Shown here one piece after another: positions 5,333 through 61,471 of a stretch of DNA of 64,000 nucleotides (position 1 is its first letter; each line of letters opens with the position of its first letter). The notes under the pieces are model-generated. The model did no database searches, was not told the DNA's origin, and was given only the letters and a program-made list of their open reading frames with translations. A program made the position numbers and the translations under genes. The DNA comes from Nitrospirota bacterium (GTDB lineage Bacteria; Nitrospirota; Thermodesulfovibrionia; Thermodesulfovibrionales; Dissulfurispiraceae): the NCBI GenBank assembly GCA_963790025.1, contig CAWBMP010000003.1:160001-224000 (forward strand), in the 5' to 3' direction.

Positions 5333-5534
5333 GTACTTCGATTCATAAATATGGTTGCATTCGAACGCCGCTGCACCCCTCCAGCTTCGTTGCGCTCCTT
5401 CTCCGTACACAAACGGGGTCCCCGGCAAGTCGGAGACTTGCTGGGGTGCAGAACGGTACGCCTCCACTCGCGCGCCTTGCCGGCGCGGCGCATCAACGCT
5501 CTCAATGCGACACCATATTTATGAACTGAAGTAC
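5333..5534. mobile_element. MITE-like element, copy 1, with ~23-bp terminal inverted repeats and a nested 41-bp insert
   Basis: GTACTTCGATTCATAAATATGGT ... ACCATATTTATGAACTGAAGTAC; a reverse-complement homolog lies at 23420-23581; no transposase. Confidence 0.8.
5415..5448. repeat. 34-bp hairpin element (same family as those in gspI and gspG) nested in MITE copy 1
   Basis: GGGGTCCCCGGCAAGTCGGAGACTTGCTGGGGTG; absent from MITE copy 2. Confidence 0.8.
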
Positions 5535-34561: not shown

Positions 34562-36400
34562 ATGCAGGGACGTTTCATACATACGATTCAGTTTGTCTTT
34601 GCCGCTTTGTCGGCGGTTGTTGTCATTGCGTCAACAGAAACTCCGTCGTATTCGCAGGAGCAAAGCAACCCTCAACCTACATTAACAACGCCCGACATCC
34701 TGCAAAACCAGCCCGTTCAGCCACCTCCAGCGCAACCACCTGTGCCACCCTCGCCTGTTCAGTTACCGCCCACACCACTTGTTCAGTCGCCTCCGGCACA
34801 ACCACCTGTGCCACCCTCGCCTGTTCAGTTACCGCCCACACCACTTATTAAGGCGCCTCCGGCACAACCACCTGTTGGGCCGCCGACTCTGCCGACGCCT
34901 GTCCGGCCACCTGTATCCGGTCAGCACTCAAGTCTGTTATCGGGAATGAAAAGAGGCGATATCAGTTTCAATTTCGATGATGCAGATATCTATGAAGTCA
35001 TACAGACAGTTTTCGGGGACATCCTGAAGAAGAATTATATGGTGGACCCTTCTGTTAAAGGAAGGATCACCTTCAGAACAGTCAGTGCTGTCCCCAAAGA
35101 CGACGTGCTGTCACTTATGGAGATACTGCTCAAAATGAACGGCGCAGGCTTTATTGAGGAAAACGGACTCTATAAGATACTTCCAGTTGATCAAATACCC
35201 GGCACCACACCCAAAGTTTTTGTCTATCCACTGCAAAACAGCAAGGCAACTCATATAGCGCAGCTCCTGCAATCAATATTCACTGCTGGCAGCAGCACTC
35301 CAGGGTCCACTGTGCCGCCACCGCCCCAGCCATCCCAGGCAACTACAACCGTCACCAAGACAGGCGGCACCGCTTTTTCGCTGGGGTCCGGGCATTTGGT
35401 GGGCCCAAATACAAAGGTGCTTGCCGATGAGATAACCAACTCGCTGATTGTCCTGTCCACGCAGGACGATTATAATTTTATTGAAGAAACTGTGAAGAAA
35501 CTCGACACAACCCCCCGCCAGGTAATGATCGAGGTGCTTATAGCGGAAATAACCCTGACAAACGAATTTCAGTTTGGCCTGGAATGGGTCATGCAAAACG
35601 CAACAAAAATCCATATTCCCGGCATCGCAAGACCTGTAACCGCAGCCGGACCTATAGGACAAAACTCAAATTTGCTGTCGTCGTCATCCGTTAGTTTGCC
35701 GAACGGCATTTCGGGTTTCTCCTGGGCCTTGCAAGATGCTTCGGGCAATGTAAAGACCCTGCTGCAAAGTCTTGCGTCGGAAGATTTGCTAACCGTGCTT
35801 GCCTCTCCCCATATCCTTGCCGCCGATAACCGCGAGGCGCGCATACAGATCGGCAGTCAGGTCCCCATAGCCACATCGCAGGCAACAGCAGTAGGCACAT
35901 CGAACAGCATCCTGTCCACCATCCAGTATAAAGACATCGGCACTATCCTGAAGGTAAAGCCCCAGATCAACGAGAGCGGACTCGTTGCCATGGAAGTGTC
36001 ACAGGAGGTATCCGATTTCTCCACGCAGAATGTGCTCGGCACCTCCCAGTTTATCTTTTCTAAACGAGAGGCAACTACCAACCTTGTAGCTCAGGACGGC
36101 CAGACCATAGTGATCGGGGGTCTTATACAGGACAACATAGACAAGAGCAAGTCAGGCATACCATTTCTGAACAGTATCCCGATACTGGGCTATCTCTTCG
36201 GCACAAATGATAATAAACGGACAAAAACGGAAATCATTGTCCTGCTTACACCGCACGTTATCAAGAACCAGGACGATTCAAACAAAGTATCAACCGATTA
36301 CATAAACAGACTTAAAGGTGATAATAAAACTAATAAAGACTTAAACATCGACAAATATACCCAACAACCCGCTGAAAGTACACCGCAAAATAGCAAATAA
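34562..36400 (+). CDS. gspD: type II secretion secretin GspD (short form, Pro-rich N-terminus)
   Basis: N0 domain ISFNFDDADI, QVMIEVLIAE, A.IQIGSQVP, QYKDIG.ILKVKP.IN, IPILGYLF. Confidence 0.9.
   Translation: MQGRFIHTIQFVFAALSAVVVIASTETPSYSQEQSNPQPTLTTPDILQNQPVQPPPAQPPVPPSPVQLPPTPLVQSPPAQPPVPPSPVQLPPTPLIKAPPAQPPVGPPTLPTPVRPPVSGQHSSLLSGMKRGDISFNFDDADIYEVIQTVFGDILKKNYMVDPSVKGRITFRTVSAVPKDDVLSLMEILLKMNGAGFIEENGLYKILPVDQIPGTTPKVFVYPLQNSKATHIAQLLQSIFTAGSSTPGSTVPPPPQPSQATTTVTKTGGTAFSLGSGHLVGPNTKVLADEITNSLIVLSTQDDYNFIEETVKKLDTTPRQVMIEVLIAEITLTNEFQFGLEWVMQNATKIHIPGIARPVTAAGPIGQNSNLLSSSSVSLPNGISGFSWALQDASGNVKTLLQSLASEDLLTVLASPHILAADNREARIQIGSQVPIATSQATAVGTSNSILSTIQYKDIGTILKVKPQINESGLVAMEVSQEVSDFSTQNVLGTSQFIFSKREATTNLVAQDGQTIVIGGLIQDNIDKSKSGIPFLNSIPILGYLFGTNDNKRTKTEIIVLLTPHVIKNQDDSNKVSTDYINRLKGDNKTNKDLNIDKYTQQPAESTPQNSK
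34724..34875 (+). repeat. 66-bp tandem repeat (~2.3 copies) encoding PPAQPPVPPSPVQLPPTPLxxx in GspD
   Basis: Units start at 34724, 34790 and 34856. Confidence 0.85.
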
Positions 36401-36448: not shown

Positions 36449-37084
36449 TTATCTGTTCATATGCGGCGTGATAGCTCTCCTGCCGAGGTTGGGCGGAGTA
36501 GAACCAGTACTAGAAGCAGGAGCACCAGGCACGGAAGGAACAGCAGCAGCGGTTTTTGCCGCTGTCTCTTTTCCCCTGTCTTTAGGGTCCGCGAGCATGA
36601 CTGTCATGACCTCTTTGTCCCTGACCATAACAACCCTGTCAGGCTCAACGCTTTTCAGCACAAAACCGCTCAATGTTTCTCCTTTTTTAAGCACCCGGGT
36701 CCGATTGCCCCTTCCCGGCGTGCTCACCGGGGCCTTCTTATCAACCATATAGGCCAGACCCGTTTCATCGGTGATCAAGGTGCCGTAAAGCACGAATTCA
36801 GGTATGGGCAGGGGTTTTGCAGCCACCTTTTCAGGTGGTATCTTCCTGTCTGGATGGAAAAGGTTCTGATCAGCGATCAGCGCATAGTCAATGAGAGATT
36901 GAGCAGGTTCGGCCTTCGTCTTCCGGGCATTCTCTGTTACCGGCGCCGCCTTTACAGCTGGTGGCGTAATCCTCAACGTCTTGACAACCGGAGGTGAAAA
37001 AACATACTGGGCTGATGCAACTGCAACTGCCACCAAAAGTATATTAAGCAGATTAATGCTTCTCAAAATATAGCCCGGCATCAT
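36449..37084 (-). CDS. T2SS GspC-like protein
   Basis: N-terminal TM helix, NLFHPDR, LYGTLI...G.TLSGFVLKSVEPDRVVM (HR-like domain); last gene of the gsp operon. Confidence 0.6.
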   Translation of the reverse strand: MMPGYILRSINLLNILLVAVAVASAQYVFSPPVVKTLRITPPAVKAAPVTENARKTKAEPAQSLIDYALIADQNLFHPDRKIPPEKVAAKPLPIPEFVLYGTLITDETGLAYMVDKKAPVSTPGRGNRTRVLKKGETLSGFVLKSVEPDRVVMVRDKEVMTVMLADPKDRGKETAAKTAAAVPSVPGAPASSTGSTPPNLGRRAITPHMNR

Positions 37085-37632
37085 CTCCCCCCGGCCAGCG
37101 CCGATACGTCCAGCTTCACCGATAGCTCTCTGGGATCATTGAAATTCTTGATGCGTGCATCAAGTTCCTTTACCACAAGGTACGGGGTCCGCGTCTCGAT
37201 TGCATAAAGGACATCAGCCAGTGCCCGAGTATCAGGAAATGTTACGTCCATGCTGACGTTGATCACCGTGAATTTTCCAAGCGTCTCGGGTTTGCTCACA
37301 CGCTCGCTCGATGTTGTTCCGCCCCTCGCAGTGATCATACCTTTCACCGTTTCACTCAAAGACGCAGCTATAATGGACGGGGTCTGCCCCTCCATTAGTT
37401 TTGAGTTTTCTGTCTTCCTTAATTCTTTAAGTGCCGCAAGCTGTTTTTGCAATTCCGGCTTTTCCGCAACAAGCGCCGTATATTTGGCGAGCGTTCTGCT
37501 CTTGGCCGTCTCTTCTTCCTTCATGACGGCCAACTGCGACTGAACTCTCTGATAGCCGTACTGGTACGCAACAAGAACTAAAAGTATCACGATCAGCGGT
37601 ATCGAAAATAACAGGAGTCTATTTTTTTCCAT
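37081..37632 (-). CDS. gspM: T2SS GspM/PilO-like protein
   Basis: TM helix, coiled coil, ferredoxin-like C-terminal domain (LYAIETRTPYLVV); gene order. Confidence 0.7.
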   Translation of the reverse strand: MEKNRLLLFSIPLIVILLVLVAYQYGYQRVQSQLAVMKEEETAKSRTLAKYTALVAEKPELQKQLAALKELRKTENSKLMEGQTPSIIAASLSETVKGMITARGGTTSSERVSKPETLGKFTVINVSMDVTFPDTRALADVLYAIETRTPYLVVKELDARIKNFNDPRELSVKLDVSALAGGR

Positions 37633-37670
37633 TTTGACTCTCTGGCCCTTTGACACTCTGACACTGTCTT

Positions 37671-39251
37671 TTATTGCTTTGCATTCGTTTTTCCCTGTGT
37701 CCGGCTTAAAGCACGGCCTGGAGGCCCTGCCTGCTGGCCTCTACTGCCGGCTGCTGTCGGCTGGGTTTGTTTTATTCCCTTGATTTCCATTTTTATACTA
37801 AACCGGTCTGAGTTCATGCGAACGTCCCTGAACGTCGGAGTAGAGAACTCTGCCTTGCCAAAATATTGCGATGCCTCGAGCCTGGACAAGAGTTCAGAGG
37901 CGGATTTTGAATAACCCTCGATCTCTGCCCTCGATTCTATTATCCTGAATCTCGTAAGCCAGGCCGACTTGGGAAGGACCACTGTCAGTTCTTTCAGTAT
38001 AGTTAGCACCAGCGGCCTGCTTTCCTTGAATCCGTTGATTCTTGCTATCTCTCCATTAACAGCTTCTATTTCCTTTTTCAGTGCCTCGGAATTCTTCGCT
38101 TCTGCCTTGCCAAGCTTTATCTGACGATCAATCGCCGCAAGCCTTTGCTCTTCAACCTGTATCGGTGCCAGAAAGTATCCAATGCCCAGGGCCAGCAGGA
38201 TCGCCACAAGGATTGCTGTCAATGCCAGGGGTATCTCTGCCTTTGCACGCCGTCCCCTTGTGAGCAGATCCAGCTTTCCCGACCCAGGGCTCAATGATTC
38301 CATCATTCCGCCTGTCGCCGGATAAGCAGCTTCCTTTTGTTCATCCAGCATTACTACCGGAATTCCCAATCCCGTCCGCACCCTCTCCCTTAAAGCCGGC
38401 CTGCCGTCCCTGAGCAAGGCGTATATATGCCGGTCATTGCTTCCATCCTTTGCTGCGGCCATCAGCGGTTTTATATCAGCCGCTATCCTTTCGGCCCTCG
38501 ATTTGTCGTCTTCAGCTGAAAACCTCCAGCTGACTACTTCATGCAGGGTGCCGCCCAGGAACAGCGCACCTTCGTAGTCATCCCCCTCCGTCCCGATAAA
38601 TAGAAAATCCCCCTGTTTGCTCCCTTTGCTGATAGTCCGGCACAACTCCCCCATACCCGCGATATTCAACGTAACACTGTCCACTATGTACCCCTGTTCT
38701 CCAAGCGCCCCGATGTATTCGTTTATTTGTTCCACTTTCGCTGCTGAGATTACTATTTTTATCTTCCCGGCACTCTCACCTGCTATGGTGAAGTCATAAA
38801 AAGCCTCCTCAGGTTTGAAGGGCAGGAGCCTGTCGAACTCATAAGTTACGGCATTGGATATGTTCTCCCTGACAGCAGCCGGGAATTCGGCAGACCTGAT
38901 TATGGCCCAGGCCTTCGGGATGCTCAGGGTGACGCCTGCTCCCGTAACACCGAGTTCCTTTGCAGCCAATGTTACCGCGGAGGCCACCTCTTTCGGCAGA
39001 GGGTAGGCATGGTCGGCAGACGGGTAATGTTTTACTCCCCTGACCGTAAGGGACGACAGAAAGCGCGTGCCGTATGCTACCGACACGCCGCTCCTTTCAA
39101 CAGCCACGCAGAGGGCCTTCCTCAATGCGATCCGGTCATCCGCAGCGCTGAAAACAAAGATGTCCCTTAGAGGGACGGCAATTCTGCCTATCCACGATAA
39201 TGTATTATCAATAAATGGGCCTATCTTCCTGATAGCTTCTATTTTGTTCAT
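37671..39251 (-). CDS. gspL: T2SS GspL (actin-like cytoplasmic domain plus PilN domain)
   Basis: YEFDRLLPF, single TM helix, LPKSAWLT...IEGYS...LE.S.YF PilN motif. Confidence 0.75.
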   Translation of the reverse strand: MNKIEAIRKIGPFIDNTLSWIGRIAVPLRDIFVFSAADDRIALRKALCVAVERSGVSVAYGTRFLSSLTVRGVKHYPSADHAYPLPKEVASAVTLAAKELGVTGAGVTLSIPKAWAIIRSAEFPAAVRENISNAVTYEFDRLLPFKPEEAFYDFTIAGESAGKIKIVISAAKVEQINEYIGALGEQGYIVDSVTLNIAGMGELCRTISKGSKQGDFLFIGTEGDDYEGALFLGGTLHEVVSWRFSAEDDKSRAERIAADIKPLMAAAKDGSNDRHIYALLRDGRPALRERVRTGLGIPVVMLDEQKEAAYPATGGMMESLSPGSGKLDLLTRGRRAKAEIPLALTAILVAILLALGIGYFLAPIQVEEQRLAAIDRQIKLGKAEAKNSEALKKEIEAVNGEIARINGFKESRPLVLTILKELTVVLPKSAWLTRFRIIESRAEIEGYSKSASELLSRLEASQYFGKAEFSTPTFRDVRMNSDRFSIKMEIKGIKQTQPTAAGSRGQQAGPPGRALSRTQGKTNAKQ

Positions 39252-39282
39252 CGTACTTTGTATGTGGTCCTTATTCCGTTTT

Positions 39283-40230
39283 TTAGTGTACTCTGTATGC
39301 CGGGCTTTTATAATACACGTATTTGCATTTATTCTGGATGTCGATGATTACAGTCGCTTTGACAGGATAGCCGGCTTTCTCGTCTCCTTTGAGCCCCTGC
39401 GATTCCACAGTGAAGACGTTGGTTTCATCCACAGTAATATAGGGGACAATAAGACTGTAACCGCCTGCGACTATCTGCTGGACTGCATCCAACTTCTTTA
39501 TGGGCTGGTCCTGCCGGGTCTTGATTATCTGATCAGCCAGGTCCGCAGTCATGCCGGGCAGGGCCATTATGACTTCTTTCGATGCATAGTTGAGGTTCAC
39601 AAGAGTACTCTTGGAGTTCACTGTTAGAAAATCAATGATGCCCTTTTGATTGCCGTCTCCGTAAAGTATGGCAGGAGTCACTCCCTTGACGAGCAGAAGT
39701 TCCTCAATAGTGTCGAAATCGGCCTTCTTCGTTTTGTATGGATTTGGCAGCGACATATAATAATCATCTCCTGCGCCATTAAGCCGTGTCAAGCCGCTGG
39801 GGTCTTTGAAGTCCATTATGGAGTCCACAATCTTATCGGCTTCATCGTCCTTTATTCCGATGTTCAGAAGCAAGTTTTTCAGCAATATATCAGGGACCTT
39901 GTTGATGTCCAGTTTGCCAGATTCTCCCATGATACTAACCGAATAACGTCCTTCGCCCACATGATCTGTATATGTAGTGCCGTCGGCCCCCCACACTTCC
40001 ATGCCCGGCAATATTATCTCATTATTCAAATTTTGCCTGCGATAAATGATCTCGAATATTCCCCGCTCGATGCCGGCATCTGCAAGCAATTTTCTTTCCG
40101 CATTGTCCCTGAAAACCATGGAGGCATGCGTTTCCGTCCTGGCAAGAAAAGAAAAAGACAGCACCAGGACCATGAGAATCGCCAGCGCCCACATGACCAC
40201 GAACAGGGCAATGCCGTCATTCCTACCCAT
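39283..40230 (-). CDS. gspK: minor pseudopilin GspK
   Basis: G|IALFVVMW cleavage site, ESGKLDIN, FDTIEELLLVKG, VNLNYAS; start approximate. Confidence 0.88.
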   Translation of the reverse strand: MGRNDGIALFVVMWALAILMVLVLSFSFLARTETHASMVFRDNAERKLLADAGIERGIFEIIYRRQNLNNEIILPGMEVWGADGTTYTDHVGEGRYSVSIMGESGKLDINKVPDILLKNLLLNIGIKDDEADKIVDSIMDFKDPSGLTRLNGAGDDYYMSLPNPYKTKKADFDTIEELLLVKGVTPAILYGDGNQKGIIDFLTVNSKSTLVNLNYASKEVIMALPGMTADLADQIIKTRQDQPIKKLDAVQQIVAGGYSLIVPYITVDETNVFTVESQGLKGDEKAGYPVKATVIIDIQNKCKYVYYKSPAYRVH

Positions 40231-40846
40231 TGGTGACATTGGCAATCGACACGGTTGCATCCTGCGGACCCCCTACTTTCATCGGAATTATCAGCAATGT
40301 CTCGCTGCGCCCATTGACAAGATGCAGACGGATTTTATCAGGCATTGTGTCGGTGCCGGACCACTGGTCAGTCCACGTGCCCTTTTCGTCTGTAGGACCT
40401 TTATAGAAATATTCAAAATAGATATGATCCAGGAAGTCAAAAAGCCTCACATCTCCCCTGCCAGGTTCTCCTGTAGCGCTCTCTTCAACATGCAATTCCT
40501 GCTTTCCCCATGCATCGGACATTACCTTATAACTTACCATCACGTATCCGCGCCGGCCGCTCCAAAGGGAATAATTGCTGGGGAACTGCATGGATAAGCC
40601 GTCGCCTTTAAACAAAAAAGTCTGTCCCGCTTCTTCCTGTGTTGCAATTACCAATGCCGATTGTATCTGTGAATCGACGATATTCAAAGATGCCCTGAAC
40701 CTTTCGAGCGATCCTATCCTTCTTTCTCCGGAATCCACAGTCCGCAAGCCGAGCCGCATGGCCAGACCGATAATCACTATAATAATTCCGATCATGGTAA
40801 CGGATATCAGCAGCTCGATAAGCGTATAACCATTATTTTTTTTCAT
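40223..40846 (-). CDS. gspJ: minor pseudopilin GspJ
   Basis: G|YTLIELL type IV N-methylation motif; gene order. Confidence 0.8.
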   Translation of the reverse strand: MKKNNGYTLIELLISVTMIGIIIVIIGLAMRLGLRTVDSGERRIGSLERFRASLNIVDSQIQSALVIATQEEAGQTFLFKGDGLSMQFPSNYSLWSGRRGYVMVSYKVMSDAWGKQELHVEESATGEPGRGDVRLFDFLDHIYFEYFYKGPTDEKGTWTDQWSGTDTMPDKIRLHLVNGRSETLLIIPMKVGGPQDATVSIANVTNG

Positions 40847-40873
40847 TTGTTTCTTAACTCTGACACTGTTGGA

Positions 40874-41404
40874 TTAAATTTCCTTCTTCACTACTTTCAG
40901 GGTCCTGACAGTCAGCCATCTGTCCCATGGTCCTTTTCTCCACAGTACCGTGATTCCTATGTCAAGCATCCTTACCTGCAGGTTATCAGCCTTTTCTTTA
41001 AGCGTCTCTTTTACAGAAGCGTTTATCCGGTAGCCGTCATCGGTAACTTCACTCCAGTCCTTCTCCGCAAGAGCATCGTCGGCAAGCAGTTCCCGCATCC
41101 TGGACTCCGCTTTCACAACTGCGGCAACATAATCCTGAGAGACCGTTATGCCCCTGAGGTCTGCAGAAAAGAGCCGCACTATGATAAGCAAGGCTATGGC
41201 CACAAGTGCAAGCGCCACAAGAATTTCGACTAAGGTGAAACCGGAAACCGGTGCACATCGTTCGACGTTCTTCGTTCTGCGCTCTCGCACCCCAAAAAGT
41301 CTGCAACTTTTCGGGGACCCCCTCTGCACCCCAAAAAGTCTGCAACTTTTCGGGGACCCCGTCTTTGACAGAATATCAGATAACGTGAATTTACAGAGTG
41401 CCAT
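40874..41404 (-). CDS. gspI: minor pseudopilin GspI with unusually long, repeat-containing leader
   Basis: G|FTLVEIL motif preceded by a ~55-aa leader containing GSPKSCRLFGV twice; start coupled to the gspH stop (TAATG). Confidence 0.8.
   Translation of the reverse strand: MALCKFTLSDILSKTGSPKSCRLFGVQRGSPKSCRLFGVRERRTKNVERCAPVSGFTLVEILVALALVAIALLIIVRLFSADLRGITVSQDYVAAVVKAESRMRELLADDALAEKDWSEVTDDGYRINASVKETLKEKADNLQVRMLDIGITVLWRKGPWDRWLTVRTLKVVKKEI
41288..41360. repeat. two identical 34-bp hairpin elements, 39-bp period, in frame in the gspI leader
   Basis: CACCCCAAAAAGTCTGCAACTTTTCGGGGACCCC at 41288 and 41327. Confidence 0.92.
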
Positions 41405-41850
41405 TATTTCATCACCACCGATCCGACTACCGGATCAATAATAATTCTGATTTCCTTTTTTTTACCGGCAAGTATGATTGTTCCACCCTGCACCGGACCT
41501 GCCGGCTGAAATGTCAGGGAGTATGTCCCCTTCCTGATCTCACCGGCATAAGGGTCCAGCACCCTTACGGTAATATCCGAATCAATGCTTTTACGGCTGC
41601 GACCATCTATGCCGTACTGTCTTGCATCGAGGTCAATATACAGTTTCTTGCCTGCGCCGTCAATCTGCGTAAGCTGATGGGCATAATGGATAGTTGCAGA
41701 CAACTCACGCGCCGCAGCACTTAGCTTGTTTGCCGTCAATGTATTTGAGAAAAAAAGCGTGGTAAGTCCCATTATGAGCGCGATAAGGACCATGACGATC
41801 AGCATTTCAAGCAGCGTAAAGCCATGTTTGTTCACTATACAGAACCCCAA
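41404..41850 (-). CDS. gspH: minor pseudopilin GspH/FimT-like
   Basis: G|FTLLEML motif; C-terminal F.P.G...GG.I.L. Confidence 0.8.
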   Translation of the reverse strand: MGFCIVNKHGFTLLEMLIVMVLIALIMGLTTLFFSNTLTANKLSAAARELSATIHYAHQLTQIDGAGKKLYIDLDARQYGIDGRSRKSIDSDITVRVLDPYAGEIRKGTYSLTFQPAGPVQGGTIILAGKKKEIRIIIDPVVGSVVMK

Positions 41851-41973
41851 ATGAAATTAACCAAAGAAGCACCGAGACACAGAGAAAAAATTGTTCATTA
41901 AAAAGGCTTTTCGATTTTTAACTATCATCATCTTTTCTCTGTGCCTCCGTGTCTCTGTGTTTTACTTTACAGG

Positions 41974-43164
41974 TTAAAACGGAAGGTCCGTTATGCTGAA
42001 TATAGCGGTCAGCATCGAAATAACAATGAACCCGATCACCAGCCCCATCCCGAGGATCAAAGCCGGTTCCAGAAAGCTGATAAGCCTCTTGACCGAAGAC
42101 TTCAGGCTCTTCTCATAAGTAGAGGCAACCCTTATCAGCATCGTATCCAATTGTCCTGTCTCTTCACCAACCTTGACCATCGAGAGTGCCAGTTGCGGAA
42201 ATACCTGCGTGGCGGCAAGAGGTCCTGCTATCCCCTTGCCTTCCTTGGCGCCTCTGGAGACGGCATCAATGGCGGATGCGATGACCTGGTTGCTTATAAT
42301 ATCTTTGGCATTTGAGAGCGCCAGAAGCAGGGGCACCCCGCTCTGAAGCAGCGTTCCCAGTGTCCTGCAGAACCGGGCGGTCTCTATTTTTGTGATTATG
42401 TCACTCAGCAATTTGAGCTTGACGGCGTCGAACCTGTACCTGCCTTCTGCGGTCCTGATATAACCCTTGAATGCCAGCCATATACCAAACACGCCCGCAG
42501 CCATCAGCCACCAGTATGATTTCAAAACGTCGCTTACGGAAAGCAGTATTTGCGTCGAAAGCGGCAGGGCCGTTCCCATCTCTTTAAAAATCACGGCGAA
42601 TTTCGGCAGCACGTATGTGAGGAGGACCCCAATAGATATGCTGCTGGTGAGTATAAGTATCACCGGATAAATCATCGCGGAAACGATATGGTCTTTCAGT
42701 TCTTTTGAAGACTCCAGGAATTCATTTAGCTTGTCAAGTACCACGTCGACAACGCCGCCGGACTCGCCCGCCCGTATCATATTCACGTAAAGTCTCGGAA
42801 AGACCTTCGGATGGCGCTGCAGAGCATCGGAGAAAGAATTGCCCTCGCGCAGTGATTTCGCAATGCCCTGGACCACCCTTTTCATCTCTCCGCTTTCGGA
42901 TATCTCAGCCAATATGCCCAGGCTCCTGTCAAGGGGAAGTCCAGCTCCGAGCAATGCAGAGAGTTCAGCGGTGAAGGTCACGAGGTCGGCCGTGCCGGAC
43001 CTGAGGGAAAACCGTCTTTTCTTCTCTGCCTGGGCACTGATATTCAAAAGAATGACGCCCGACGTCTTGATCCGCTCCAGCGCTGCAGCCTCATCCATGG
43101 CTTCTATAAATCCATCGGTGACCGCACCGTCAGGGGATGCCGCCCTATATGAAAAAATCGCCAT
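41974..43164 (-). CDS. gspF: T2SS inner membrane platform GspF
   Basis: LLGAGLPL, MIRAGESGG, AMIYP, VGEETG, LEP. Confidence 0.93.
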   Translation of the reverse strand: MAIFSYRAASPDGAVTDGFIEAMDEAAALERIKTSGVILLNISAQAEKKRRFSLRSGTADLVTFTAELSALLGAGLPLDRSLGILAEISESGEMKRVVQGIAKSLREGNSFSDALQRHPKVFPRLYVNMIRAGESGGVVDVVLDKLNEFLESSKELKDHIVSAMIYPVILILTSSISIGVLLTYVLPKFAVIFKEMGTALPLSTQILLSVSDVLKSYWWLMAAGVFGIWLAFKGYIRTAEGRYRFDAVKLKLLSDIITKIETARFCRTLGTLLQSGVPLLLALSNAKDIISNQVIASAIDAVSRGAKEGKGIAGPLAATQVFPQLALSMVKVGEETGQLDTMLIRVASTYEKSLKSSVKRLISFLEPALILGMGLVIGFIVISMLTAIFSITDLPF

Positions 43165-44675
43165 CAGCCTTCCTGCGTCACCCTAAGCAGTTCACTCAGA
43201 GTAGTCATGCCGGCCTTTATCTTTTCAACTCCATCTTCAAGCAGGGTCTTCATCCCGTTGCGCCGTGCCAATTCCCTGATCTTGTTTGCATCCACATTGT
43301 GCACGATAAGGTTGCGCAAATCATCGTCCACCACGATCAGCTCGAATATTCCTATCCGGCCGCGGTATCCCGTAAAAGAACACTTATCACATCCGCGCCC
43401 CTTATATGCGTCTGAAATCCGGAGGGCGCCATACTCTGCCGATGCCTGATCGGGCTCTTTGCATGAGGGACAGATTGATCTTACAAGTCTCTGTGCAAGT
43501 ATTCCGCGTATAGTGGATGTCAGCAGGAACTTCTCTACACCCATGTCATGCAGTCTGGTGATGGCGCTTGGGGCGTCATTGGTGTGGAGTGTCGAGAAAA
43601 CAAGGTGGCCCGTGAGGGCCGCCTGGATCGCTATCTCCGCAGTATCGAGGTCTCTCGTTTCTCCTATCATTATGACATCGGGGTCCTGTCTGACTATATG
43701 CCTCAGCGTGTTTGCGAAATTCAGGCCGATTTGCGGCTTTATCTGCATCTGGTTGATCCCTTTGAGCTGGTACTCCACAGGATCTTCAACGGTAATGATC
43801 TTTTTATCAGGGGAGTTTATTTTGTCAAGCGCTCCATAGAGCGTAGTTGTCTTCCCGCTTCCCGTAGGGCCGGTTACAAGTACTATGCCGTTGGGCCTCG
43901 TGATCAACTGCTCAAAAGCAGCGAGTGTTTCCGGGAAAAAGCCGAGACGCTCAAGGTCAACTACAATACTTTCCTTATCCAGGATCCTCATCACCACGCT
44001 TTCACCATGCACGACGGGTATTGTAGAAATGCGCAGGTCAATTTCTTTTTCTCCCACTTTAAGCCGTATGCGGCCATCCTGCGGCAGTCTACGTTCGGCA
44101 ATATTCAGCTTTGCAGTAAGTTTGATTCTCGATACGATAGCAGCCTGCAGCTTTTTGGGCACCGATTCTATATCATGGAGGATGCCGTCAATGCGGTACC
44201 TGACTTTCATCTCATCCTGAAAAGGTTCGATGTGTATATCGCTTGCCCTGTTCTCAACAGCTCTGACTATAAGCATATTGACCAATTTGATTATGGGAGC
44301 CTCAGACGCAAGGTCTTTCAAATGCCCTACGTCCTCTTCATCATTTCTCAGAAACTCAAGCCCGCTCTTGTCGCCTATCTCTTCTATAAGCTTGTTTATG
44401 TCCTGCGATTCCTGTCCGTAGAATTTCGACATGTACTCGTCGAGCACACCGTTATCCACGCCGTATACTTTAATGTCTGCGGAGGTTGCGACACGGAGAG
44501 CATCGATAGTTGACCTGTCAGCAGGATCTGCCATAGCCACACTCAACACATTATTATTGAAATCCAGGAGCACTATCCTGCTCTCGCGGATAAAACGGGA
44601 GTTTATGCCCCCAAAAATAAAGGGGACCCTGGGCATTTCCTCAAGTTTCAGATAGGGTACTTCTTTAGTCATCAT
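43164..44675 (-). CDS. gspE: T2SS ATPase GspE
   Basis: ASDIHIEP, GPTGSGKTTT, EDPVEY, RQDPD, TGHLV.STLH, CPSC...CDKC. Confidence 0.95.
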   Translation of the reverse strand: MMTKEVPYLKLEEMPRVPFIFGGINSRFIRESRIVLLDFNNNVLSVAMADPADRSTIDALRVATSADIKVYGVDNGVLDEYMSKFYGQESQDINKLIEEIGDKSGLEFLRNDEEDVGHLKDLASEAPIIKLVNMLIVRAVENRASDIHIEPFQDEMKVRYRIDGILHDIESVPKKLQAAIVSRIKLTAKLNIAERRLPQDGRIRLKVGEKEIDLRISTIPVVHGESVVMRILDKESIVVDLERLGFFPETLAAFEQLITRPNGIVLVTGPTGSGKTTTLYGALDKINSPDKKIITVEDPVEYQLKGINQMQIKPQIGLNFANTLRHIVRQDPDVIMIGETRDLDTAEIAIQAALTGHLVFSTLHTNDAPSAITRLHDMGVEKFLLTSTIRGILAQRLVRSICPSCKEPDQASAEYGALRISDAYKGRGCDKCSFTGYRGRIGIFELIVVDDDLRNLIVHNVDANKIRELARRNGMKTLLEDGVEKIKAGMTTLSELLRVTQEG

Positions 44676-44741
44676 TGCTTTCTCTCAGTTCTTCAGCTTC
44701 TTGCCTTTCGCCTCGAACCTATAGCCTATTGCCTTGTCTTT

Positions 44742-45248
44742 TCATTCCCAGCTTACAACGTCCTTGTCTTCGCCTTCGCCCCCTGGATTGCCGTCTCTAC
44801 CAAAGGAATAAAGATCAAATTCTCCATGAGTGCCGGGGCAATCGTAGTGGTAAGGTCTTCCCCACGGGTCGTTAGGCACACCCTTTCTCAGATACGGCCC
44901 CTCCCATTTTTCGATTCCGGGATTAGCGACCAGGGCATTCAATCCCTCCTGTGAGGTTGGATATCTGCCGGTATCAAGCCTGAACTGGTCTAACGCTTGT
45001 TCGAACAACTCAATCTGCGCCTTTGCAGCACCTTGCTTCCCCTTTCCCAGTTTTGGAAAAAGCTGGGGCCCCACAAGTGCCGCCAAAAGACCCAAAATAA
45101 CCAGTACGACAAGCAGCTCTACAAGTGTAAATCCCTTCTCTCTCGCCCTAGCCCCAGAAAGTCTGCGACTTTCCGGAGACCCCCTTAGCACCCCAGAAAG
45201 TCTGCGACTTTCCGGAGACCCCGTTTCAATACAAGAGTTTCGCAGCAT
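44742..45248 (-). CDS. gspG: major pseudopilin GspG with repeat-containing leader
   Basis: G|FTLVELL, LDTGRYP...GL.AL, WEGPYL, DPWG; leader contains GSPESRRLSG twice; alternative start at 45293. Confidence 0.92.
   Translation of the reverse strand: MLRNSCIETGSPESRRLSGVLRGSPESRRLSGARAREKGFTLVELLVVLVILGLLAALVGPQLFPKLGKGKQGAAKAQIELFEQALDQFRLDTGRYPTSQEGLNALVANPGIEKWEGPYLRKGVPNDPWGRPYHYDCPGTHGEFDLYSFGRDGNPGGEGEDKDVVSWE
45150..45222. repeat. two 34-bp hairpin elements, 39-bp period, in frame in the gspG leader
   Basis: (AG/CA)CCCCAGAAAGTCTGCGACTTTCCGGAGACCCC at 45150 and 45189. Confidence 0.92.
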
Positions 45249-45524
45249 CACTTGTTTCCTCCAAATGGCTTTCCAACTTCCATGTTTAGTCATGAATTAT
45301 ATATAGGAGACATTAAAAACATCACTCAATAAAAATAGAATATCTCTCTGTAAAGTATCACTAACAGAGCATACAAGTCAATGCGTTAACAATCCAGGAG
45401 TTCCCCCATTTTTTTAAAACTATAAAAGACCACTTCTTTAAAACTGTATCCGCTTATTCTTTAATGACTTATTTCTTTTATGCCCCTATTTTCGAGGGCA
45501 GTCCTGGTTAACAAACCCTGGATA

Positions 45525-48398: not shown

Positions 48399-49751
48399 GT
48401 GCAAGAAAAAAACCGGAAAAAGATATCGTGTGTTCAGTGCATCATGGGAATAGTTTTACTCTTGACAATGTTAGTTGCTTCAGGCGCTAAAGTCTTTGCT
48501 GAAGAGGGCTGCGTAACTGGAAAATGCCACACTTCGATAACATCGGGGGCGGTCGTGCACGCTGTGGCCTCGTCCTGTGATTCCTGCCATGAAGCGGTCA
48601 GCAAGCAGCATCCGCAAAAATCGGTAAAGACATTCAAGCTTGTGCAGGAACCACCCGGGCTCTGCGCAACATGCCATGCGCCGTTCGGCTCCAAAAAATA
48701 TGTCCATACCGCGGTTAAAAACGGCATGTGCACCTCGTGCCATGACCCGCACTCCTCCGCCCAGCAGAAGCTGCTTGTGAAAAAGCCGGACGAACTTTGC
48801 GGAATGTGCCATCCGGACAAGACGGAGTTCAAATATATGCACGGACCGGCAGCGGCCGGCGATTGTTTGATGTGCCACAATCCGCATGAATCCGACAATA
48901 AAGCGCAGACCGTGAAATCCGGCGCCGACATATGCTTCAGCTGCCACGTAGATATGCAAAAAGAATTGAAAAAGGCGCACGTCCACCCTGCAATGGAAAA
49001 CGGCTGTACCTCCTGTCACAATCCGCACGGCTCCTCATTCAGAAAGTTTTTCGCCGCGGAAGGCAACGAACTTTGCTTCCAGTGCCATCCGGAGATCGAA
49101 GAAAAGATAAAAGGGGCGGCGATCGTGCATGCTCCCATAAAGAGCGCATCGGGTTGCGTTTCGTGCCATTCTCCGCATGCAAGCGATGCAGAAAAGCTCC
49201 TTCCGAAATCTGGCAAGGATTTATGCCTTTCGTGCCACACCAAGCTGCTGAAAAAAACAGACACGGTGCTTCACGGTCCTATTAAAGAGGGCAAATGCAC
49301 GCCCTGCCATGATCCGCACGGGTCTGTTAATGCAAGGCTTCTGATAAAGGAGTTCCCAACGGACATGTACGTGCCGTACACCGAGAATGAGTATGCTCTC
49401 TGTTTCTCCTGCCACAAAAGGGACCTCCTTCTCTTTCCCGAGACCTCTTTTGCCACGGGCTTCAGGGACGGTGACAGAAACCTCCATTATCTCCATGTGA
49501 ACAGGAAGGAAAAAGGCAGGAGTTGCGTGATATGCCATGCGCTTCACGGAGGCACACTGCCGAAGTTGATAAACGAGAATGCCAAGTTCGGGAATTGGAA
49601 CTTGCCAATCAAATTTGAGAAAACGGAAAACGGAGGGGGTTGTTCTCCGGGATGCCATAGTCCGTTCGGCTATGACAGGAAGAATCCGGTAAAAGGAGGT
49701 CAGCCGGTGCCGACAAAAGAGAAAGAAAAGGAAAAAGGGAAAAAACAGTAA
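48399..49751 (+). CDS. periplasmic multiheme cytochrome c (13 CxxCH, 1 CX4CH, 1 CX3CH; paired-CxxCH family)
   Basis: Signal peptide, repeated CxxCHxPH...LCxxCH units; AGGAG RBS. Confidence 0.92.
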   Translation: MQEKNRKKISCVQCIMGIVLLLTMLVASGAKVFAEEGCVTGKCHTSITSGAVVHAVASSCDSCHEAVSKQHPQKSVKTFKLVQEPPGLCATCHAPFGSKKYVHTAVKNGMCTSCHDPHSSAQQKLLVKKPDELCGMCHPDKTEFKYMHGPAAAGDCLMCHNPHESDNKAQTVKSGADICFSCHVDMQKELKKAHVHPAMENGCTSCHNPHGSSFRKFFAAEGNELCFQCHPEIEEKIKGAAIVHAPIKSASGCVSCHSPHASDAEKLLPKSGKDLCLSCHTKLLKKTDTVLHGPIKEGKCTPCHDPHGSVNARLLIKEFPTDMYVPYTENEYALCFSCHKRDLLLFPETSFATGFRDGDRNLHYLHVNRKEKGRSCVICHALHGGTLPKLINENAKFGNWNLPIKFEKTENGGGCSPGCHSPFGYDRKNPVKGGQPVPTKEKEKEKGKKQ

Positions 49752-50335
49752 TGGAACAGCACCAGTCAAACGAAACGGTTGAACGGTCTTATCCTTACCG
49801 GGTCGCGGTCCAATGCACGGTCACCTTTCTGTCCGGGCTGCTCCTGACCTCGCTTGTCATCTGGCTTTATTCCTACAGGGTACCGGCTGCGTCCTATGCG
49901 GAGAATTACAAAATTCTTTCGCAGCTCAGAAACGAGATTGTCTGCTCATCGCTTGTTATTTACACGGTAACGTCACTCTTCATTATTGGAAGTATCGCTG
50001 TACTTTCCCTGCTTTATTCCCATAGAGTAGCGGGTCCGCTCTATAAACTCGGCTTGTTCGTGCGCAAGACAGCTCTTGGAGATTTTACCGGGAGCGTAAC
50101 ATTCAGGCAGACGGACGTTATTCATCCGCTTGCCGAGGATGTCAATGAACTCATCGCTTTCTACCGTGCAACAGTTACTCAACTGGAAACCAAGGCACAT
50201 GAACTGGACAGCGCCGCCCGGGTGATAAGCGACGCCGCCCTGCCGCCCTCCCGCGATGAACTGCAGAAGGTGATCGTTGATATCTGCGGAAAAGCCGATG
50301 AAATCGGGGACATACTGAGCCATTTCAGGTTATGA
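49751..50335 (+). CDS. 2-TM HAMP-domain membrane protein without a signalling domain
   Basis: Two TM helices, SHRVAGPL...GDF HAMP domain, short coiled coil. Confidence 0.75.
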   Translation: MEQHQSNETVERSYPYRVAVQCTVTFLSGLLLTSLVIWLYSYRVPAASYAENYKILSQLRNEIVCSSLVIYTVTSLFIIGSIAVLSLLYSHRVAGPLYKLGLFVRKTALGDFTGSVTFRQTDVIHPLAEDVNELIAFYRATVTQLETKAHELDSAARVISDAALPPSRDELQKVIVDICGKADEIGDILSHFRL

Positions 50336-51150
50336 GCCGCGAGAAAGTTCTTTTCCTGACTTTTTTGCTGCTCTCTGGTGCATTAGTTTATAGTATGGGA
50401 AAAGACCCGCATTCATTCCCGCAGTCTGAATGTTTGAATTGCCATTCAGTGGACGCGTCCGGAACGGTCGCCAAACATACGAGGGAGCCTGTTACAATAG
50501 TCTGTAAAAAATGCCATGAAGACGTTTTTTCAAAAGGGTACATTCACCCCGTTAACGTCCGGCCCGGTTCTGTTAAAGTTCCCAGAGACATGCCGCTATC
50601 TGCATCCGGTGAAATCACTTGCAGCACATGCCATAATATGCACACGCCGGGTCTTACGCCGTTCGGAACAAAATCATACTATCTGCGGCGCTTTGAATCC
50701 GGGAAAAAATTCTGCGAGGCGTGTCACAAGAGAGGGCCCGGAACAGAATCACACCAGGCGGCCCTTGGGGAGGCCCACTTCAGCGCAAAATATATTATTA
50801 CCGACCCTTCGCAAAAGCTAGATTCCATGTCGAAGGACTGCATCTCCTGCCACGACGGTTCATTCTCGTCATCGGTCATGGCCGCAGGGACGTGGCAGCA
50901 TGGCAGGGACTTCTTAAGGTTCGACAAGGGAGGGCATCCCATCGGTGTCGATTATGAAGAGGCAAGGACACGTAGAGGGTCGAAGTCGGACCTTAAGCCT
51001 ATCGGTGCGGTTGACCGTCGGCTGCGTTTTTTTAACGGCAGGGTCGGGTGCGGTACCTGTCACAATCCCTACTCGACAATAGAAAAACAACTTGTGATGA
51101 GCGACAGGGAAAGCAGGCTCTGCTTTTCATGCCATTCCATGGGGAGGTAG
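50332..51150 (+). CDS. heptaheme cytochrome c
   Basis: CLNCH, CKKCH, CSTCH, CEACH, CISCH, CGTCH, CFSCH; signal peptide. Confidence 0.9.
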   Translation: MSREKVLFLTFLLLSGALVYSMGKDPHSFPQSECLNCHSVDASGTVAKHTREPVTIVCKKCHEDVFSKGYIHPVNVRPGSVKVPRDMPLSASGEITCSTCHNMHTPGLTPFGTKSYYLRRFESGKKFCEACHKRGPGTESHQAALGEAHFSAKYIITDPSQKLDSMSKDCISCHDGSFSSSVMAAGTWQHGRDFLRFDKGGHPIGVDYEEARTRRGSKSDLKPIGAVDRRLRFFNGRVGCGTCHNPYSTIEKQLVMSDRESRLCFSCHSMGR

Positions 51151-51152
51151 CG

Positions 51153-51731
51153 ATGGACAAAGGATATAAAAGAAGGCATTATTTCATCAATAAGGATTTT
51201 CAGGGGAAATTCATTATACAGCTTCTGGCGATATCGTCTGTGGGCAGCATTTTTGCCGTATTGCTTTTCATTTTCTTTGCCAACAGGAAGATAGACAGCT
51301 TGCTCTATTCGATGATGATCCCCTCCTCCATATTCAGGGGCAATATCCTGCTGAAGGAGGCCCTTTGGGCCAATGGCATCGCAGTGGTCATCATTGCAAT
51401 CATATTTATGGCTGTCGTGAGGAGGATTTTAGGGAAAATTACCGGTCCTCTGCATGATATCAGGAACGGTATAGTAAATATCGGCAGCGGCAATCTGACG
51501 TCCAGGATTGTCCTGCGCAGTAAAGATGAATTCCAGGACTTTGCGGACGGAGTGAACAACCTAAGCACTGAGATCCATAGCAGGTTCTCCGCAATTGACA
51601 GGAGGGCGGAAAAGATCGCCGCACTGGCGGAAGAGCTTGGGAAGTTTGGTGATGCTGAAAGCGAACGCATTGCCGGTTTGATGAGGGAGATAAGCGAGCT
51701 CGATCAGGAAATAGGAGCGTTCAGGAAATGA
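51153..51731 (+). CDS. 2-TM HAMP-domain membrane protein without a signalling domain
   Basis: GGGGAGG RBS, RRHYFINKDFQ N-terminus, two TM helices, ITGPL...GNL...DEF HAMP. Confidence 0.8.
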   Translation: MDKGYKRRHYFINKDFQGKFIIQLLAISSVGSIFAVLLFIFFANRKIDSLLYSMMIPSSIFRGNILLKEALWANGIAVVIIAIIFMAVVRRILGKITGPLHDIRNGIVNIGSGNLTSRIVLRSKDEFQDFADGVNNLSTEIHSRFSAIDRRAEKIAALAEELGKFGDAESERIAGLMREISELDQEIGAFRK

Positions 51732-52147
51732 CTGCTGAAAAGTCAAAGGGCGCAGGGCACATGGCGGCAGTGTCATTTTTTCTGGTCTTTGCCTTTACCT
51801 TTTTCCCTGCAACCCTTTATGCGGTCCATGATACTATTGAGGCGATGCGGTGCCTCGATTGCCATTTACGGCTTCCTTTTGATGAAAACCGGGCGTACCT
51901 GTTCAATGAAGAAATTGCCGCGGTTTGCAATACATGCCATAAGCGTTTTGTGCATACACATCCTGTCGAAATCATTCCTTCGATGTCGATTCCCCCTGAT
52001 ATGCCGCTTGACGGCAAAGGGAGGATGACCTGTATAACCTGCCACTTATTTCATAGCCGCGATATCCCTGCGGACGGGGAAAAGACATTTCTTCTGAGAC
52101 ACGAAAATGGAAAAACGTTTTGCTGCATCTGCCATACGAAATTGTAA
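51728..52147 (+). CDS. small tetraheme cytochrome c
   Basis: CLDCH, CNTCH, CITCH, CCICH; signal peptide. Confidence 0.88.
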   Translation: MTAEKSKGAGHMAAVSFFLVFAFTFFPATLYAVHDTIEAMRCLDCHLRLPFDENRAYLFNEEIAAVCNTCHKRFVHTHPVEIIPSMSIPPDMPLDGKGRMTCITCHLFHSRDIPADGEKTFLLRHENGKTFCCICHTKL

Positions 52148-52178
52148 AAAGGCGGGCGGGACGTCCCGCCTGCCTTTT
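52146..52178. terminator. bidirectional intrinsic terminator
   Basis: AAAAAGGCGGGCGGGACGTCCCGCCTGCCTTTT between convergent genes. Confidence 0.8.
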
Positions 52179-52705
52179 GCGCTCATATCAACCTTATGTT
52201 GCTAGTTGGAAGAGCTGATAGCTACTCCTGTTACTGCGCCGGTTGTCACCGGAACAGTGGCCGCCGGGTTTGCAAATGTATACCCCGACTTGGTCACCGT
52301 AATAGTATAGGTGCCTGGCACTACGTTTGTGAAGGTGAAGGCCCCACTGGCGTTGGTGCTGGTGATACCCTTGGTCACGCCACTGAGCTTAAGGGTAAGA
52401 GATGCTGCCGAAAGCGGGGTGCCCGCCAGGTTAGTCACTGTGCCGCTGACCGTGTATTTGGCCGGCACCGTTACTGTCTGGCTGGAGGTTGCACTTATGC
52501 CTGAAACAGTAGCCGTGTCAATAATATTAAAGGTGTTGTTTGTAGTATAGGTGTGGGTAAACACACCGCCTGCACTGCCTGTTGAAAGACCAGTGCCGTC
52601 ACCCCAGTTGATGGATACCGAGGAACCTGAGGTTGAGCTGTCTGTCAGGGTAACGGTCGAGCCGGTTACACTGAGAGCAAAGTTGTCGGTGGGCGGGATG
52701 TTCAC
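52146..52705. repeat. ~560-bp near-identical direct repeat, copy A (terminator plus C-terminal domains)
   Basis: Matches 54833-55392 at offset 2687, with about 15 mismatches by eye. Confidence 0.92.
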
Positions 52706-54763: not shown

Positions 54764-54832
54764 TCGGGTAACCCTCCTCGAACGTTTTACGAAGTATCGC
54801 GTTGTCGAACTTTGCTCACTATTCCAGTATGC

Positions 54833-54866
54833 AAAAAGGCAGGCGGGACGTCCCGCCTGCCTTTTG
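54833..54866 (-). terminator. intrinsic terminator after the large octaheme gene
   Basis: Perfect stem AAAAGGCAGGCGGGAC/GTCCCGCCTGCCTTTT. Confidence 0.8.
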
Positions 54867-55392
54867 CGCTCATATCAACCTTGTGTTGCTAGTTGGAAGA
54901 GCTGATAGCTACTCCTGTTACTGCGCCGGTTGTCACCGGAACAGTGGCCGCCGGGTTTGCAAATGTATACCCCGACTTGGTCACCGTAATAGTATAGGTG
55001 CCTGGCACTACGTTTGTGAAGGTGAAGGCCCCACTGGCGTTGGTGCTGGTGATACCCTTGGTCACGCCACTGAGCTTAAGGGTAAGAGATGCTGCCGAAA
55101 GCGGGGTGCCAGCCAGGTTAGTCACTGTGCCGCTGACCGCGTATTTGGCCGGCACCGTTACCTTCTGGCTGGAGGTTGCGCTTATGCCCGAAACAGTAGC
55201 GGTGTCAACAATCGTAAAGGTGTTGTTTGTAGTATAGGTGTGGGTAAACACACCGCCTGCACTGCCTGTTGAAAGACCGGTGCCGTCACCCCAGTTGATG
55301 GATACCGAGGAACCTGAGGTTGAGCTGTCTGTCAGGGTAACGGTCGAGCCGGTTACACTGAGAGCAAAGTTGTCGGTGGGAGCGATGTTCAC
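54833..55392. repeat. ~560-bp near-identical direct repeat, copy B
   Basis: Matches 52146-52705. Confidence 0.92.
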
Positions 55393-58389: not shown

Positions 58390-58571
58390 TAAAGCCCCCT
58401 TTTAAATAGGTATTTATACGCAAGTCATATGCAACGCATTGCCTTCTATTTGTTCACTACGTCTTCTCTTTTGAACGACACTCTGTCTTCTGCGATCACC
58501 TCCTCGTTATTCCAATGCTGCCATGTGGTAATCCTGCTACGCGGTAAAAAATTTGGGGGTACAATATGATT

Positions 58572-60010: not shown

Positions 60011-60029
60011 GTTTCATCTCTATTCGTAC

Positions 60030-61454: not shown

Positions 61455-61471
61455 CGGCAGTTTCAAGAACA

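Follow-up and report, generated by a model that had tools for sequence, protein, structure and literature searches.

Two pseudopilin genes of one type II secretion cluster, gspG and gspI, begin with leaders far longer than those of their closest relatives, and the question raised by this locus is what the extra sequence is and how a secretion signal came to contain it. The genes lie in a 64,000-nucleotide stretch of a Nitrospirota bacterium genome (GenBank assembly GCA_963790025.1, contig CAWBMP010000003.1, positions 160,001 to 224,000), referred to here as the window, and each carries a tandem pair of short hairpins upstream of its prepilin cleavage site. The original prediction held that these hairpins belong to an undescribed mobile family inserted in frame, with cleavable leaders as a safe haven, or that they tune pseudopilin translation. 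Our analysis indicates that the hairpins are probably copies of a small non-coding palindromic insertion element, resembling repetitive extragenic palindromic (REP) sequences and Rickettsia palindromic elements (RPEs), which survives at permissive sites; a dedicated regulatory role is unlikely.

The window was searched with a sequence pattern and with a covariance model (R1) trained on 107 family members. Both methods placed five copies of an approximately 35-nt hairpin, with a 32-nt core, at three sites in the 64 kb: a pair in gspG, a pair in gspI and a solitary intergenic copy, as predicted (Table 1). The pattern had no match in any of 100 dinucleotide-shuffled versions of the window; because it was built from the same five copies, this control mainly demonstrates that the motif is not made by chance. 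The covariance model recovered the five sites at E values of 1e-10 to 4e-8, and beyond them it returned five echoes of these sites on the opposite strand and a pair of weak matches (E 0.71 and 1.3); it revealed no further diverged copies in the window. The solitary copy lies between an rsmE-like gene (4617-5327, minus strand) and a moeA-like gene (5714-7654, minus strand), antisense to both. The plus-strand copy at 5.4 kb and the minus-strand copies at 41-45 kb share one GC-skew regime, a sample (n = 3) too small for a conclusion about the replication strand.

Both pairs are arranged head to tail with the expected period of 39 bp, or 13 codons; Tandem Repeats Finder reported the gspI array (period 39, 2.1 copies) and did not list the gspG pair. 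Within each gene the two 32-nt cores are identical; four positions distinguish the gspG core from the gspI core, and two of the four make up a compensated pair. Translation yields the predicted peptides, GSPKSCRLFGV twice in GspI and GSPESRRLSG twice in GspG, ahead of G↓FTLVE (the arrow marks the cleavage site). On the strand that begins with GGGGTC, which is the mRNA sense strand of gspG and gspI, the fold of each copy has a stem of 12 bp and a loop of 3 nt. The stems of the window copies covary as had been claimed; the A-C mismatch said to be kept in them is present on the plus strand, and on the GGGGTC strand the same position is a G.T pair, or G.U in RNA.

The hairpin is interspersed widely in other genomes, and its structure is conserved over its sequence, as the original prediction had supposed. 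A scan of one genome per species with a pattern of 18 fixed bases returned at least 122 loci, compared with about 17 matches expected by chance in 596 Gb on both strands (our own arithmetic). Among the 127 matches listed, 125 form the full hairpin; the two exceptions (L011 and L111) were dropped. The consensus is (C)GGGGTCCCC-R-NN-AAGTC-NNN-GACTT-NN-T-GGGG-TG(C), a unit of about 39 bp whose 12-bp stem carries a loop of 3 nt, in most cases GNA, and a hand check found it free of stop codons in all six frames. The C before the head is present in 90, and the TG after the tail in 70, of the 127 matches listed. An alignment of 107 distinct copies (A3) has pairing bases in 97.2% of its stem cells; 78 cells are changed on both sides, compared with 17.3 +/- 3.3 in shuffles, and none of 500 shuffles reached 78. 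The pattern had fixed six of the twelve stem pairs, and the covarying pairs are those it left free, two of them with 39 and 31 doubly changed sequences.

Eighty of the matched loci listed carry 2-kb flanks. Half of them (40/80) belong to 16 Nitrospirota-type assemblies, 11 of these loci being in one metagenome-assembled genome (MAG). The remainder comprise eight loci in Dormibacterota, loci in MAGs of Clostridia and other Bacillota, three in Paludibacteraceae, and single loci in Chloroflexota, Burkholderiales, the isolate Chitinilyticum piscinae, Thermaerobacter, Aquificales and Acidobacteriota. A BLASTN search with the canonical 37-mer gave no match in PLSDB or INPHARED, where the low-complexity filter may have masked some. 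The view that the sequence is undescribed is upheld: we found no printed description of it in the literature and none in the supplements of PMC3733652, and it corresponds to no Rfam family.

The gspG leader offers the clearest view of what an inserted copy does to its host. A GGAGG Shine-Dalgarno sequence (45262-45258) lies 6 nt ahead of GTG 45251 and 9 nt ahead of ATG 45248, upstream of both hairpin units. The resulting 39-residue leader reads MLRNSCIET, two 13-residue hairpin units and REKG, and its MLRN resembles the MF(R/L)N start of the closest orthologues. Between the second hairpin and GFTL there is no in-frame ATG, GTG or TTG, nor by eye any CTG or ATT, so at least one unit must be translated; judged from the sequence, both units are translated within the leader. 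The closest GspG homologues, from sources named Dissulfurispiraceae, Nitrospirae or Thermodesulfovibrionales, are 85-88% identical, 141 aa long and equipped with 12-residue leaders (MF(R/L)N..RLSNEKG↓FTL), and the window GspG minus 2 x 13 residues is 142 aa. None of 19 aligned GspG relatives and none of 28 aligned GspI relatives carries the hairpin peptide, so that the orthologues present themselves as the anticipated empty sites, seen at the protein level. Since the closest GspG and GspI homologues are without inserts, the inserts would be younger than the split from those relatives, as judged from protein sequences.

At gspI the reading of the start is less direct. The closest GspI relatives, of 131-134 aa, have an 8-residue leader, MKNSE(V/A)AG↓FTLLEI, and where they have ATG the window has ACG (41275-41273, in T-K-N). 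The original gspI start thus seems to have been lost, and the gene would now have to start upstream. The longest frame, with a 55-residue leader, begins at an ATG that overlaps the gspH stop codon, and translation from there, coupled to gspH, is likely. The sole other candidate, GTG 41290, is part of the 3' arm of hairpin 2 and lacks a Shine-Dalgarno sequence.

This ambiguity leaves room for the reading that the hairpins are untranslated repeats of a 5' untranslated or intercistronic region, the true starts lying downstream and the open reading frames (ORFs) being overcalled. For gspI, the in-frame GTG after hairpin 2 would give a 17-aa leader, and the orthologues' start aligns further downstream still; passages of PMC3733652 also deem many REPs at ORF N-termini probably extragenic. 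Against it, the orthologous gspI start is ACG, the GTG sits unaided in a stem, and an ATG overlapping the preceding stop is typical of translational coupling. In gspG, with its ribosome-binding site and MLRN start upstream of both units and no start codon after the second, the proposal fails, whereas the gspI start is ambiguous. We consider untranslated repeats an unlikely account overall.

Both products retain the features of class III signals. Pfam recognises N_methyl in both and T2SSG in GspG, G↓FTLxE is followed by a hydrophobic helix, and G54, F55, T56, L57 and E59 are invariant columns of the GspG alignment (A1). N_methyl is displaced inwards, spanning residues 54-75 in the GspI ORF and 49-74 in the GspG ORF, versus 1-26 in GspJ and 7-29 in GspH. 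The leaders are not short, with 39 aa for GspG and as many as 55 aa for GspI, compared with 12 and 8 aa in the closest relatives. Long leaders before G↓F(T/S)L..E, as in type IVb pilins, are compatible with prepilin peptidase; the extra length in the window differs from these in being a recent repeat insertion and not a family trait.

Copies in other genomes demonstrate that pseudopilin leaders are one host among many. Six of the 40 Nitrospirota loci with flanks are in frame inside Pfam-supported proteins, three sense and three antisense (Table 1), and three further copies form the C-terminal tails of Tig (trigger factor), a DUF1385 protein and Cas6, which brings the count in Pfam-supported ORFs to 9/40. 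Comparison of the Gmk of L006 with E. coli Gmk (1s96) revealed one clean 13-residue insertion, which equals the 39-bp unit (3 nt + 32-nt core + 4 nt) of the window copies. In one genome (L040:1950-2183, minus strand) a cobalamin riboswitch upstream of cbiM is interrupted by the hairpin, which shows up as an unaligned insert close to model position 151; the riboswitch still scores 91.6 bits over the whole Rfam model (positions 1-189). The consensus is free of stop codons in six frames, which explains why read-through is so common. Most copies nevertheless lie in intergenic DNA, and in Nitrospirota the copies outside long ORFs are mostly between co-directional genes. The predicted enrichment in prepilin leaders is not seen outside the window: a motif resembling G↓FTLxE occurs within 240 nt downstream of only one of the 127 copies listed, where it is spurious, and the hosts are many and unrelated. 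The safe-haven idea therefore survives in part: the gspG copies do lie in a translated, cleavable leader, but such leaders are one permissive site among many and no preferred haven.

These data also bear on the main rival, according to which the tandem hairpins are a cis-acting RNA device, selected or co-opted, that sets the translation or mRNA stability of the major GspG and the minor GspI. Both pairs are in sense orientation, doubled, in the same reading frame and close to the start of a pseudopilin gene; the two pair regions fold far better than shuffles (-58.7 kcal/mol, z -3.97; -60 kcal/mol, z -3.47); the sense strand retains the G.U pair; and pseudopilin genes account for two of the three window sites. 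Set against this, the closest orthologues function without the inserts, gspH, gspJ and gspK have none, and copies elsewhere occur in coding and intergenic DNA with next to no prepilin motif downstream. Nitrospirota copies outside long ORFs and with two neighbours are co-oriented with both in nine cases and opposed to both in 11, and this lack of orientation bias makes it unlikely that the element serves the host transcript through a strand-specific RNA function. The entire window has no match in Rfam 15 at the gathering score, and searched at E values up to 10 the gspI hairpins drew only noise, the best being Guanidine-II on the opposite strand (17.9 bits versus a cut-off of 32). Scans for promoters and terminators near gspG and the fifth copy found nothing above shuffle expectation. 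Tuning of pseudopilin translation is disfavoured, and we regard an RNA device as quite improbable.

Doubling, too, is found well beyond the pseudopilins. Dormibacterota have head-to-tail pairs with a period of 39 bp (L043, L077), and pairs in the same arrangement but with a period of 40-42 bp occur in a Eubacteriales MAG, a Nitrospirota MAG and a Burkholderiales array. Over a dozen loci have further copies within 2 kb. The recurrence of such pairs indicates that doubling is a habit of the family and not a design specific to pilins.

If the hairpins are copies of an insertion element, one copy would have landed in the leader-coding stretch of gspG and another at the 5' end of gspI, in a Nitrospirota lineage near Dissulfurispiraceae, and each would then have doubled locally, head to tail. 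A unit of 13 codons keeps the frame on insertion into a gene. The element would move as DNA, probably by way of a single-stranded hairpin intermediate and with the help of a trans-acting enzyme. Prepilin peptidase would remove the long leader at G↓FTL and leave the mature pseudopilins unchanged, and the 26 extra, largely basic residues would be harmless because they are presumably cut off with it. The inserts would thus persist because the site is permissive, and not through any service to secretion.

Several observations weigh against this account. Two of the three window sites are pseudopilin leaders, and GspD of another MAG (L047) hosts copies as well; type II secretion involvement exceeds a naive random model. 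The five source-genome copies were counted in the 64-kb window, the source contig not being among the matches listed by the species scan, and the empty sites are those of protein sequences. Strand asymmetry is strong: stem pair 5 is A-T in 54 copies, G.T in 53 and A.C in 2, and the loops GCA (33) and GAA (23) far outnumber their complements TGC (1) and TTC (2), which a plain double-stranded palindrome does not explain. Pfam finds no transposase domain, Y1_Tnp and TnpB included, in the window, and Pfam scans found no RAYT or Y1 transposase among 320 flank ORFs at E limits of 1e-3 to 1e-8, at which a weak match could be missed, with whole genomes outside the search. Inspection of 12 junctions by eye found no target-site duplication. 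Finally, the GspG leaders of the orthologues already contain R-L-S, residues that the hairpin arm encodes in gspG, which hints at insertion by microhomology or at a partly local origin of the stem.

The last two points would suit a local origin in each gene, through template switching at a quasi-palindrome and subsequent slippage duplication, with no dispersed element involved; so would the identity of the copies within a gene and the compensated differences between the genes. This scenario does not account for the same 32-nt core, unpaired GGGGT head and TG tail at the at least 122 loci in many genomes and at the third window site, nor for the many copies per genome in related MAGs, such as the assembly that holds 11 of the 80 flanked loci. 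It is very improbable, and a dispersed insertion element remains the reading that we prefer.

Table 1. Hairpin copies and host genes in the window, and in-frame host proteins at Nitrospirota loci elsewhere
Feature	Position	Strand or orientation	Remarks
gspG hairpin unit 1	45187..45225	-	39 bp = 3 nt + 32-nt core (45191-45222) + 4 nt; encodes T-GSPESRRLSGVL; 55.8 bits, E 3.4e-10
gspG hairpin unit 2	45148..45186	-	core 45152-45183, same as unit 1 core; 3' flank CTAG versus TGCT; 46.3 bits
gspI hairpin unit 1	41325..41363	-	core 41329-41360; 57.7 bits
gspI hairpin unit 2	41286..41324	-	core 41290-41321; in-frame GTG 41290-41288 at 3' end; 53.9 bits
Solitary intergenic copy	5412..5450	+	core 5415-5446; 56.3 bits
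gspG coding sequence	44742..45248	-	ATG 45248 (or GTG 45251); leader codons 1-39 (45248-45132); predicted cleavage after G39 (GGA 45134-45132)
gspI coding sequence, longest reading	40874..41404	-	ATG 41404 overlaps gspH stop (TAATG); G(-1) is codon 55 (41242-41240); alternative start GTG 41290
Type II secretion cluster hosting the inserts	36449..45293	-	order gspG-E-F-H-I-J-K-L/M-like-M-C; Pfam domains T2SSG, T2SSE, T2SSF, N_methyl x4, T2SSK, PilN/PilM_2, T2SSM_b, T2SSC, Secretin
gspD	34562-36400	+	divergent from the rest of the cluster; Secretin (Pfam)
SMC (L002)		sense	just ahead of hinge
DnaE (L029)		sense	past OB fold
GspD (L047)		sense	between signal peptide and N0 domain; two to three hairpins
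Gmk (L006)		antisense	within guanylate kinase domain
CBS-pair protein (L001)		antisense	between CBS domains
Histidine phosphatase, His_Phos_1 (L049)		antisense	within domain

As a kind, in-frame intragenic palindromic inserts are already known. REPs with GTAG or CGTC tags, some of them mobilised by RAYT Y1 transposases, are reported from over 80 species in passages of Di Nocera et al. 2013 (PMC3733652). The same passages place some REPs entirely within ORFs of known proteins; over half of these intragenic copies are dimers or groups encoding 20-30 residues, many lie at N-termini, and one is in DnaE of Rickettsia conorii. The window family resembles REPs in being a short (20-40 bp), interspersed, multi-copy stem-loop with structure kept over sequence, and in having copies inside ORFs, often as dimers or groups of 20-30 aa, often N-terminal and in DnaE among others. 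It differs in having no GTAG or CGTC tag: the 107 aligned copies have an unpaired GGGGT head preceded by C and a TG(C) tail, with a longer stem (12 bp) and a 3-nt loop. Its pairs are head to tail, an arrangement that those passages call absent or under-represented; its share of 9/40 Nitrospirota loci in Pfam-supported ORFs contrasts with mostly extragenic, inverted-dimer REPs; and its core is near-identical across several phyla, with no RAYT near the copies in the window or among the flank ORFs scanned.

The likeness to RPEs lies in in-frame inserts at permissive positions of hosts that are still recognisable proteins (gspG, Gmk, SMC, DnaE, CBS, His_Phos_1 and GspD). RPE-1 is about 100-150 bp long and is not known outside Rickettsia, whereas the unit described here measures 39 bp and occurs in Nitrospirota and other phyla. 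Elements derived from IS200/IS605 (PATE-like) have subterminal hairpins that stem from an element with tnpA/tnpB; the strand asymmetry seen here is compatible with single-strand recognition, and neither Y1_Tnp nor TnpB was found in the window or the scanned flank ORFs. A further comparison concerns the terminal inverted repeats (TIRs) at TIRYT, or TnpA-Y1 subclass 2.1, genes, which passages of PMC3733652 and PMC6006769 give as sharing GGGG[AT][CG]A[CG]. The window element starts with GGGGTCCC, one mismatch from that motif, a likeness of motif only; no TIRYT or Y1 subclass 2.1 gene adjoins any copy examined. Passages of PMC6006769 place Y1 subclass 2.1 in 14.9% of strains, and this wide distribution could explain a cross-phylum partner. 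Four other candidates were rejected on comparison by eye with consensus sequences: a sigma-54 promoter (wrong spacing), ANTAR dual hexaloops (the hairpin loop has 3 nt), a type III antitoxin repeat, and a 38-bp inverted repeat of the Tn3 type, which is similar only in its GGGGTCT start and at one end, TAAG.

The neighbourhoods of the copies point to no dedicated partner. The flank genes are ordinary housekeeping genes, plus Mu-like prophage genes at two loci (L004, L008), and an all-against-all BLASTP comparison of 355 flank ORFs found no recurrent neighbour family beyond orthologous neighbourhoods. GNA triloops closed by C-G form a very stable DNA mini-hairpin, and their presence together with the strand asymmetry would suit an HUH enzyme that recognises the element as single-stranded DNA.

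Several contexts recur in other genomes. At three loci of gut Clostridia MAGs the hairpin lies about 180 bp upstream of mobilisation genes (L070:1354-1900, nikA-like and relaxase; L041:1100-1340, nikA-like; L053:498-720, Mob_Pre), where a transfer origin or single-strand origin would typically be placed. The hairpin of these MAGs precedes a conserved stretch of about 100 nt that is structured and rich in purines. In Eubacteriales/Clostridia gut MAGs, namely one Eubacteriales assembly (L017, L018, L022, L062) and another Clostridia MAG (L068), and likewise at L096, L100 and L103, a hairpin and T-run resembling an intrinsic terminator always come before the element; these copies (position about 2001 or 301) have constant flanks TTGTC and TGATT, which suggests that the target is near terminators or that the element is part of a longer composite repeat. 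In Dormibacterota it lies within two longer multi-copy repeats (L033, L043, L057, L064, L077; L014, L044, L072, L110), each with conserved flanks of its own of at least 60 nt, and one copy pair is in the dnaA-rnpA-yidC region. At L107 it abuts tRNA 3'-end fragments. A CRISPR link of the cas6-adjacent copy (L054) was discarded, there being no repeat array beside it. The mobilisation-gene and terminator contexts of Clostridia suggest ties to mobile DNA.

A more ambitious and still speculative reading, which we put forward only tentatively, unites these observations. The hairpins might form an undescribed cross-phylum superfamily of coding-compatible, 13-codon, stop-free palindromes that occupy genes, riboswitches and intergenic DNA in lineages as varied as Nitrospirota, Dormibacterota, Clostridia, Bacteroidota and Betaproteobacteria. 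A widespread single-strand enzyme of the HUH/Y1 kind, possibly TIRYT-like or relaxase-like, would move them in trans and would read the GGGGT head and the strand-specific G.T and GNA features. The Clostridia copies upstream of relaxase genes would then tie the family to transfer or priming. If a shared trans-acting enzyme underlies the cross-phylum core, the family would offer a handle on how REP-like sequences spread without a RAYT neighbour, a question posed for CGTC repeats in passages of PMC3733652.

These results have practical consequences for annotation. The long, odd leaders of GspG and GspI are repeat insertions and not domains, and gene callers and family models should expect them; the same applies to the 13-residue stretches GSPKS.RLFG, GVPEKS.TFWG and G(A/T)PKS.RLFGDP in Nitrospirota housekeeping proteins. 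A cleavable class III signal peptide can evidently take up 26 foreign residues, and the locus adds a non-Rickettsia, non-proteobacterial case of in-frame palindromic inserts.

The surroundings of the gspI junction contain further unusual sequence. Upstream of the hairpins, 41369-41389 (minus strand) reads K-FTLSDIL and resembles the true G↓FTLVEIL; aligned with that of 41219-41239, its DNA is identical in 17 of 21 columns, with 2 gaps, and an equally good score arose in 23 of 2000 shuffles. The stretch may be a decayed duplicate of the gspI 5' end, made when the insert arrived. Ten distant GspI homologues (P0146, P0147, P0150, P0151, P0155, P0158, P0164, P0166, P0168 and P0174) have predicted leaders of 25-40 residues of two recurrent types, ..SNPPFPPLVKGGEGGF.. 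and ..GDTETRRL..SPFHRF... Their extensions look like read-through of other repeats or truly long leaders, and with either origin they indicate that the gspI leader junction tolerates extra sequence. A search with GspI aa 14-45 against 1.84 billion representatives gave two matches, both other repeat-derived peptides, and is uninformative about host range. A 111-aa protein, P0195, carries three 18-residue N-terminal repeats, MIPKSCRLFGQDHAQNQR, followed by a Usp-like body, and PKSCRLFG within these repeats equals the gspI hairpin peptide; this suggests that another organism has a related hairpin whose outer flanks differ and whose period is 54 bp.

Secretin genes show repeats of their own. In the window gspD, a 66-bp tandem repeat (34715-34875, plus strand; 2.4 copies, 92% matches) encodes a proline-rich PPAQPPVPPSPVQLPPTPL.. 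between the signal-peptide region and the secretin N0 domain. The GspD hairpins of the other Nitrospirota MAG (L047:1900-2152, minus strand) read ..GGVPKKSETFWGNSGVPKAGPPENSRFSG.., making GspD a second secretion-system protein that hosts the element. Adjoining the secretion cluster, the region 48399-62068 of the window contains many multihaem cytochrome genes (doubled CXXCH, MtrC/MtrF-like domains), including those of two big proteins of 853 and 1166 aa with PKD/CarboxypepD_reg domains.

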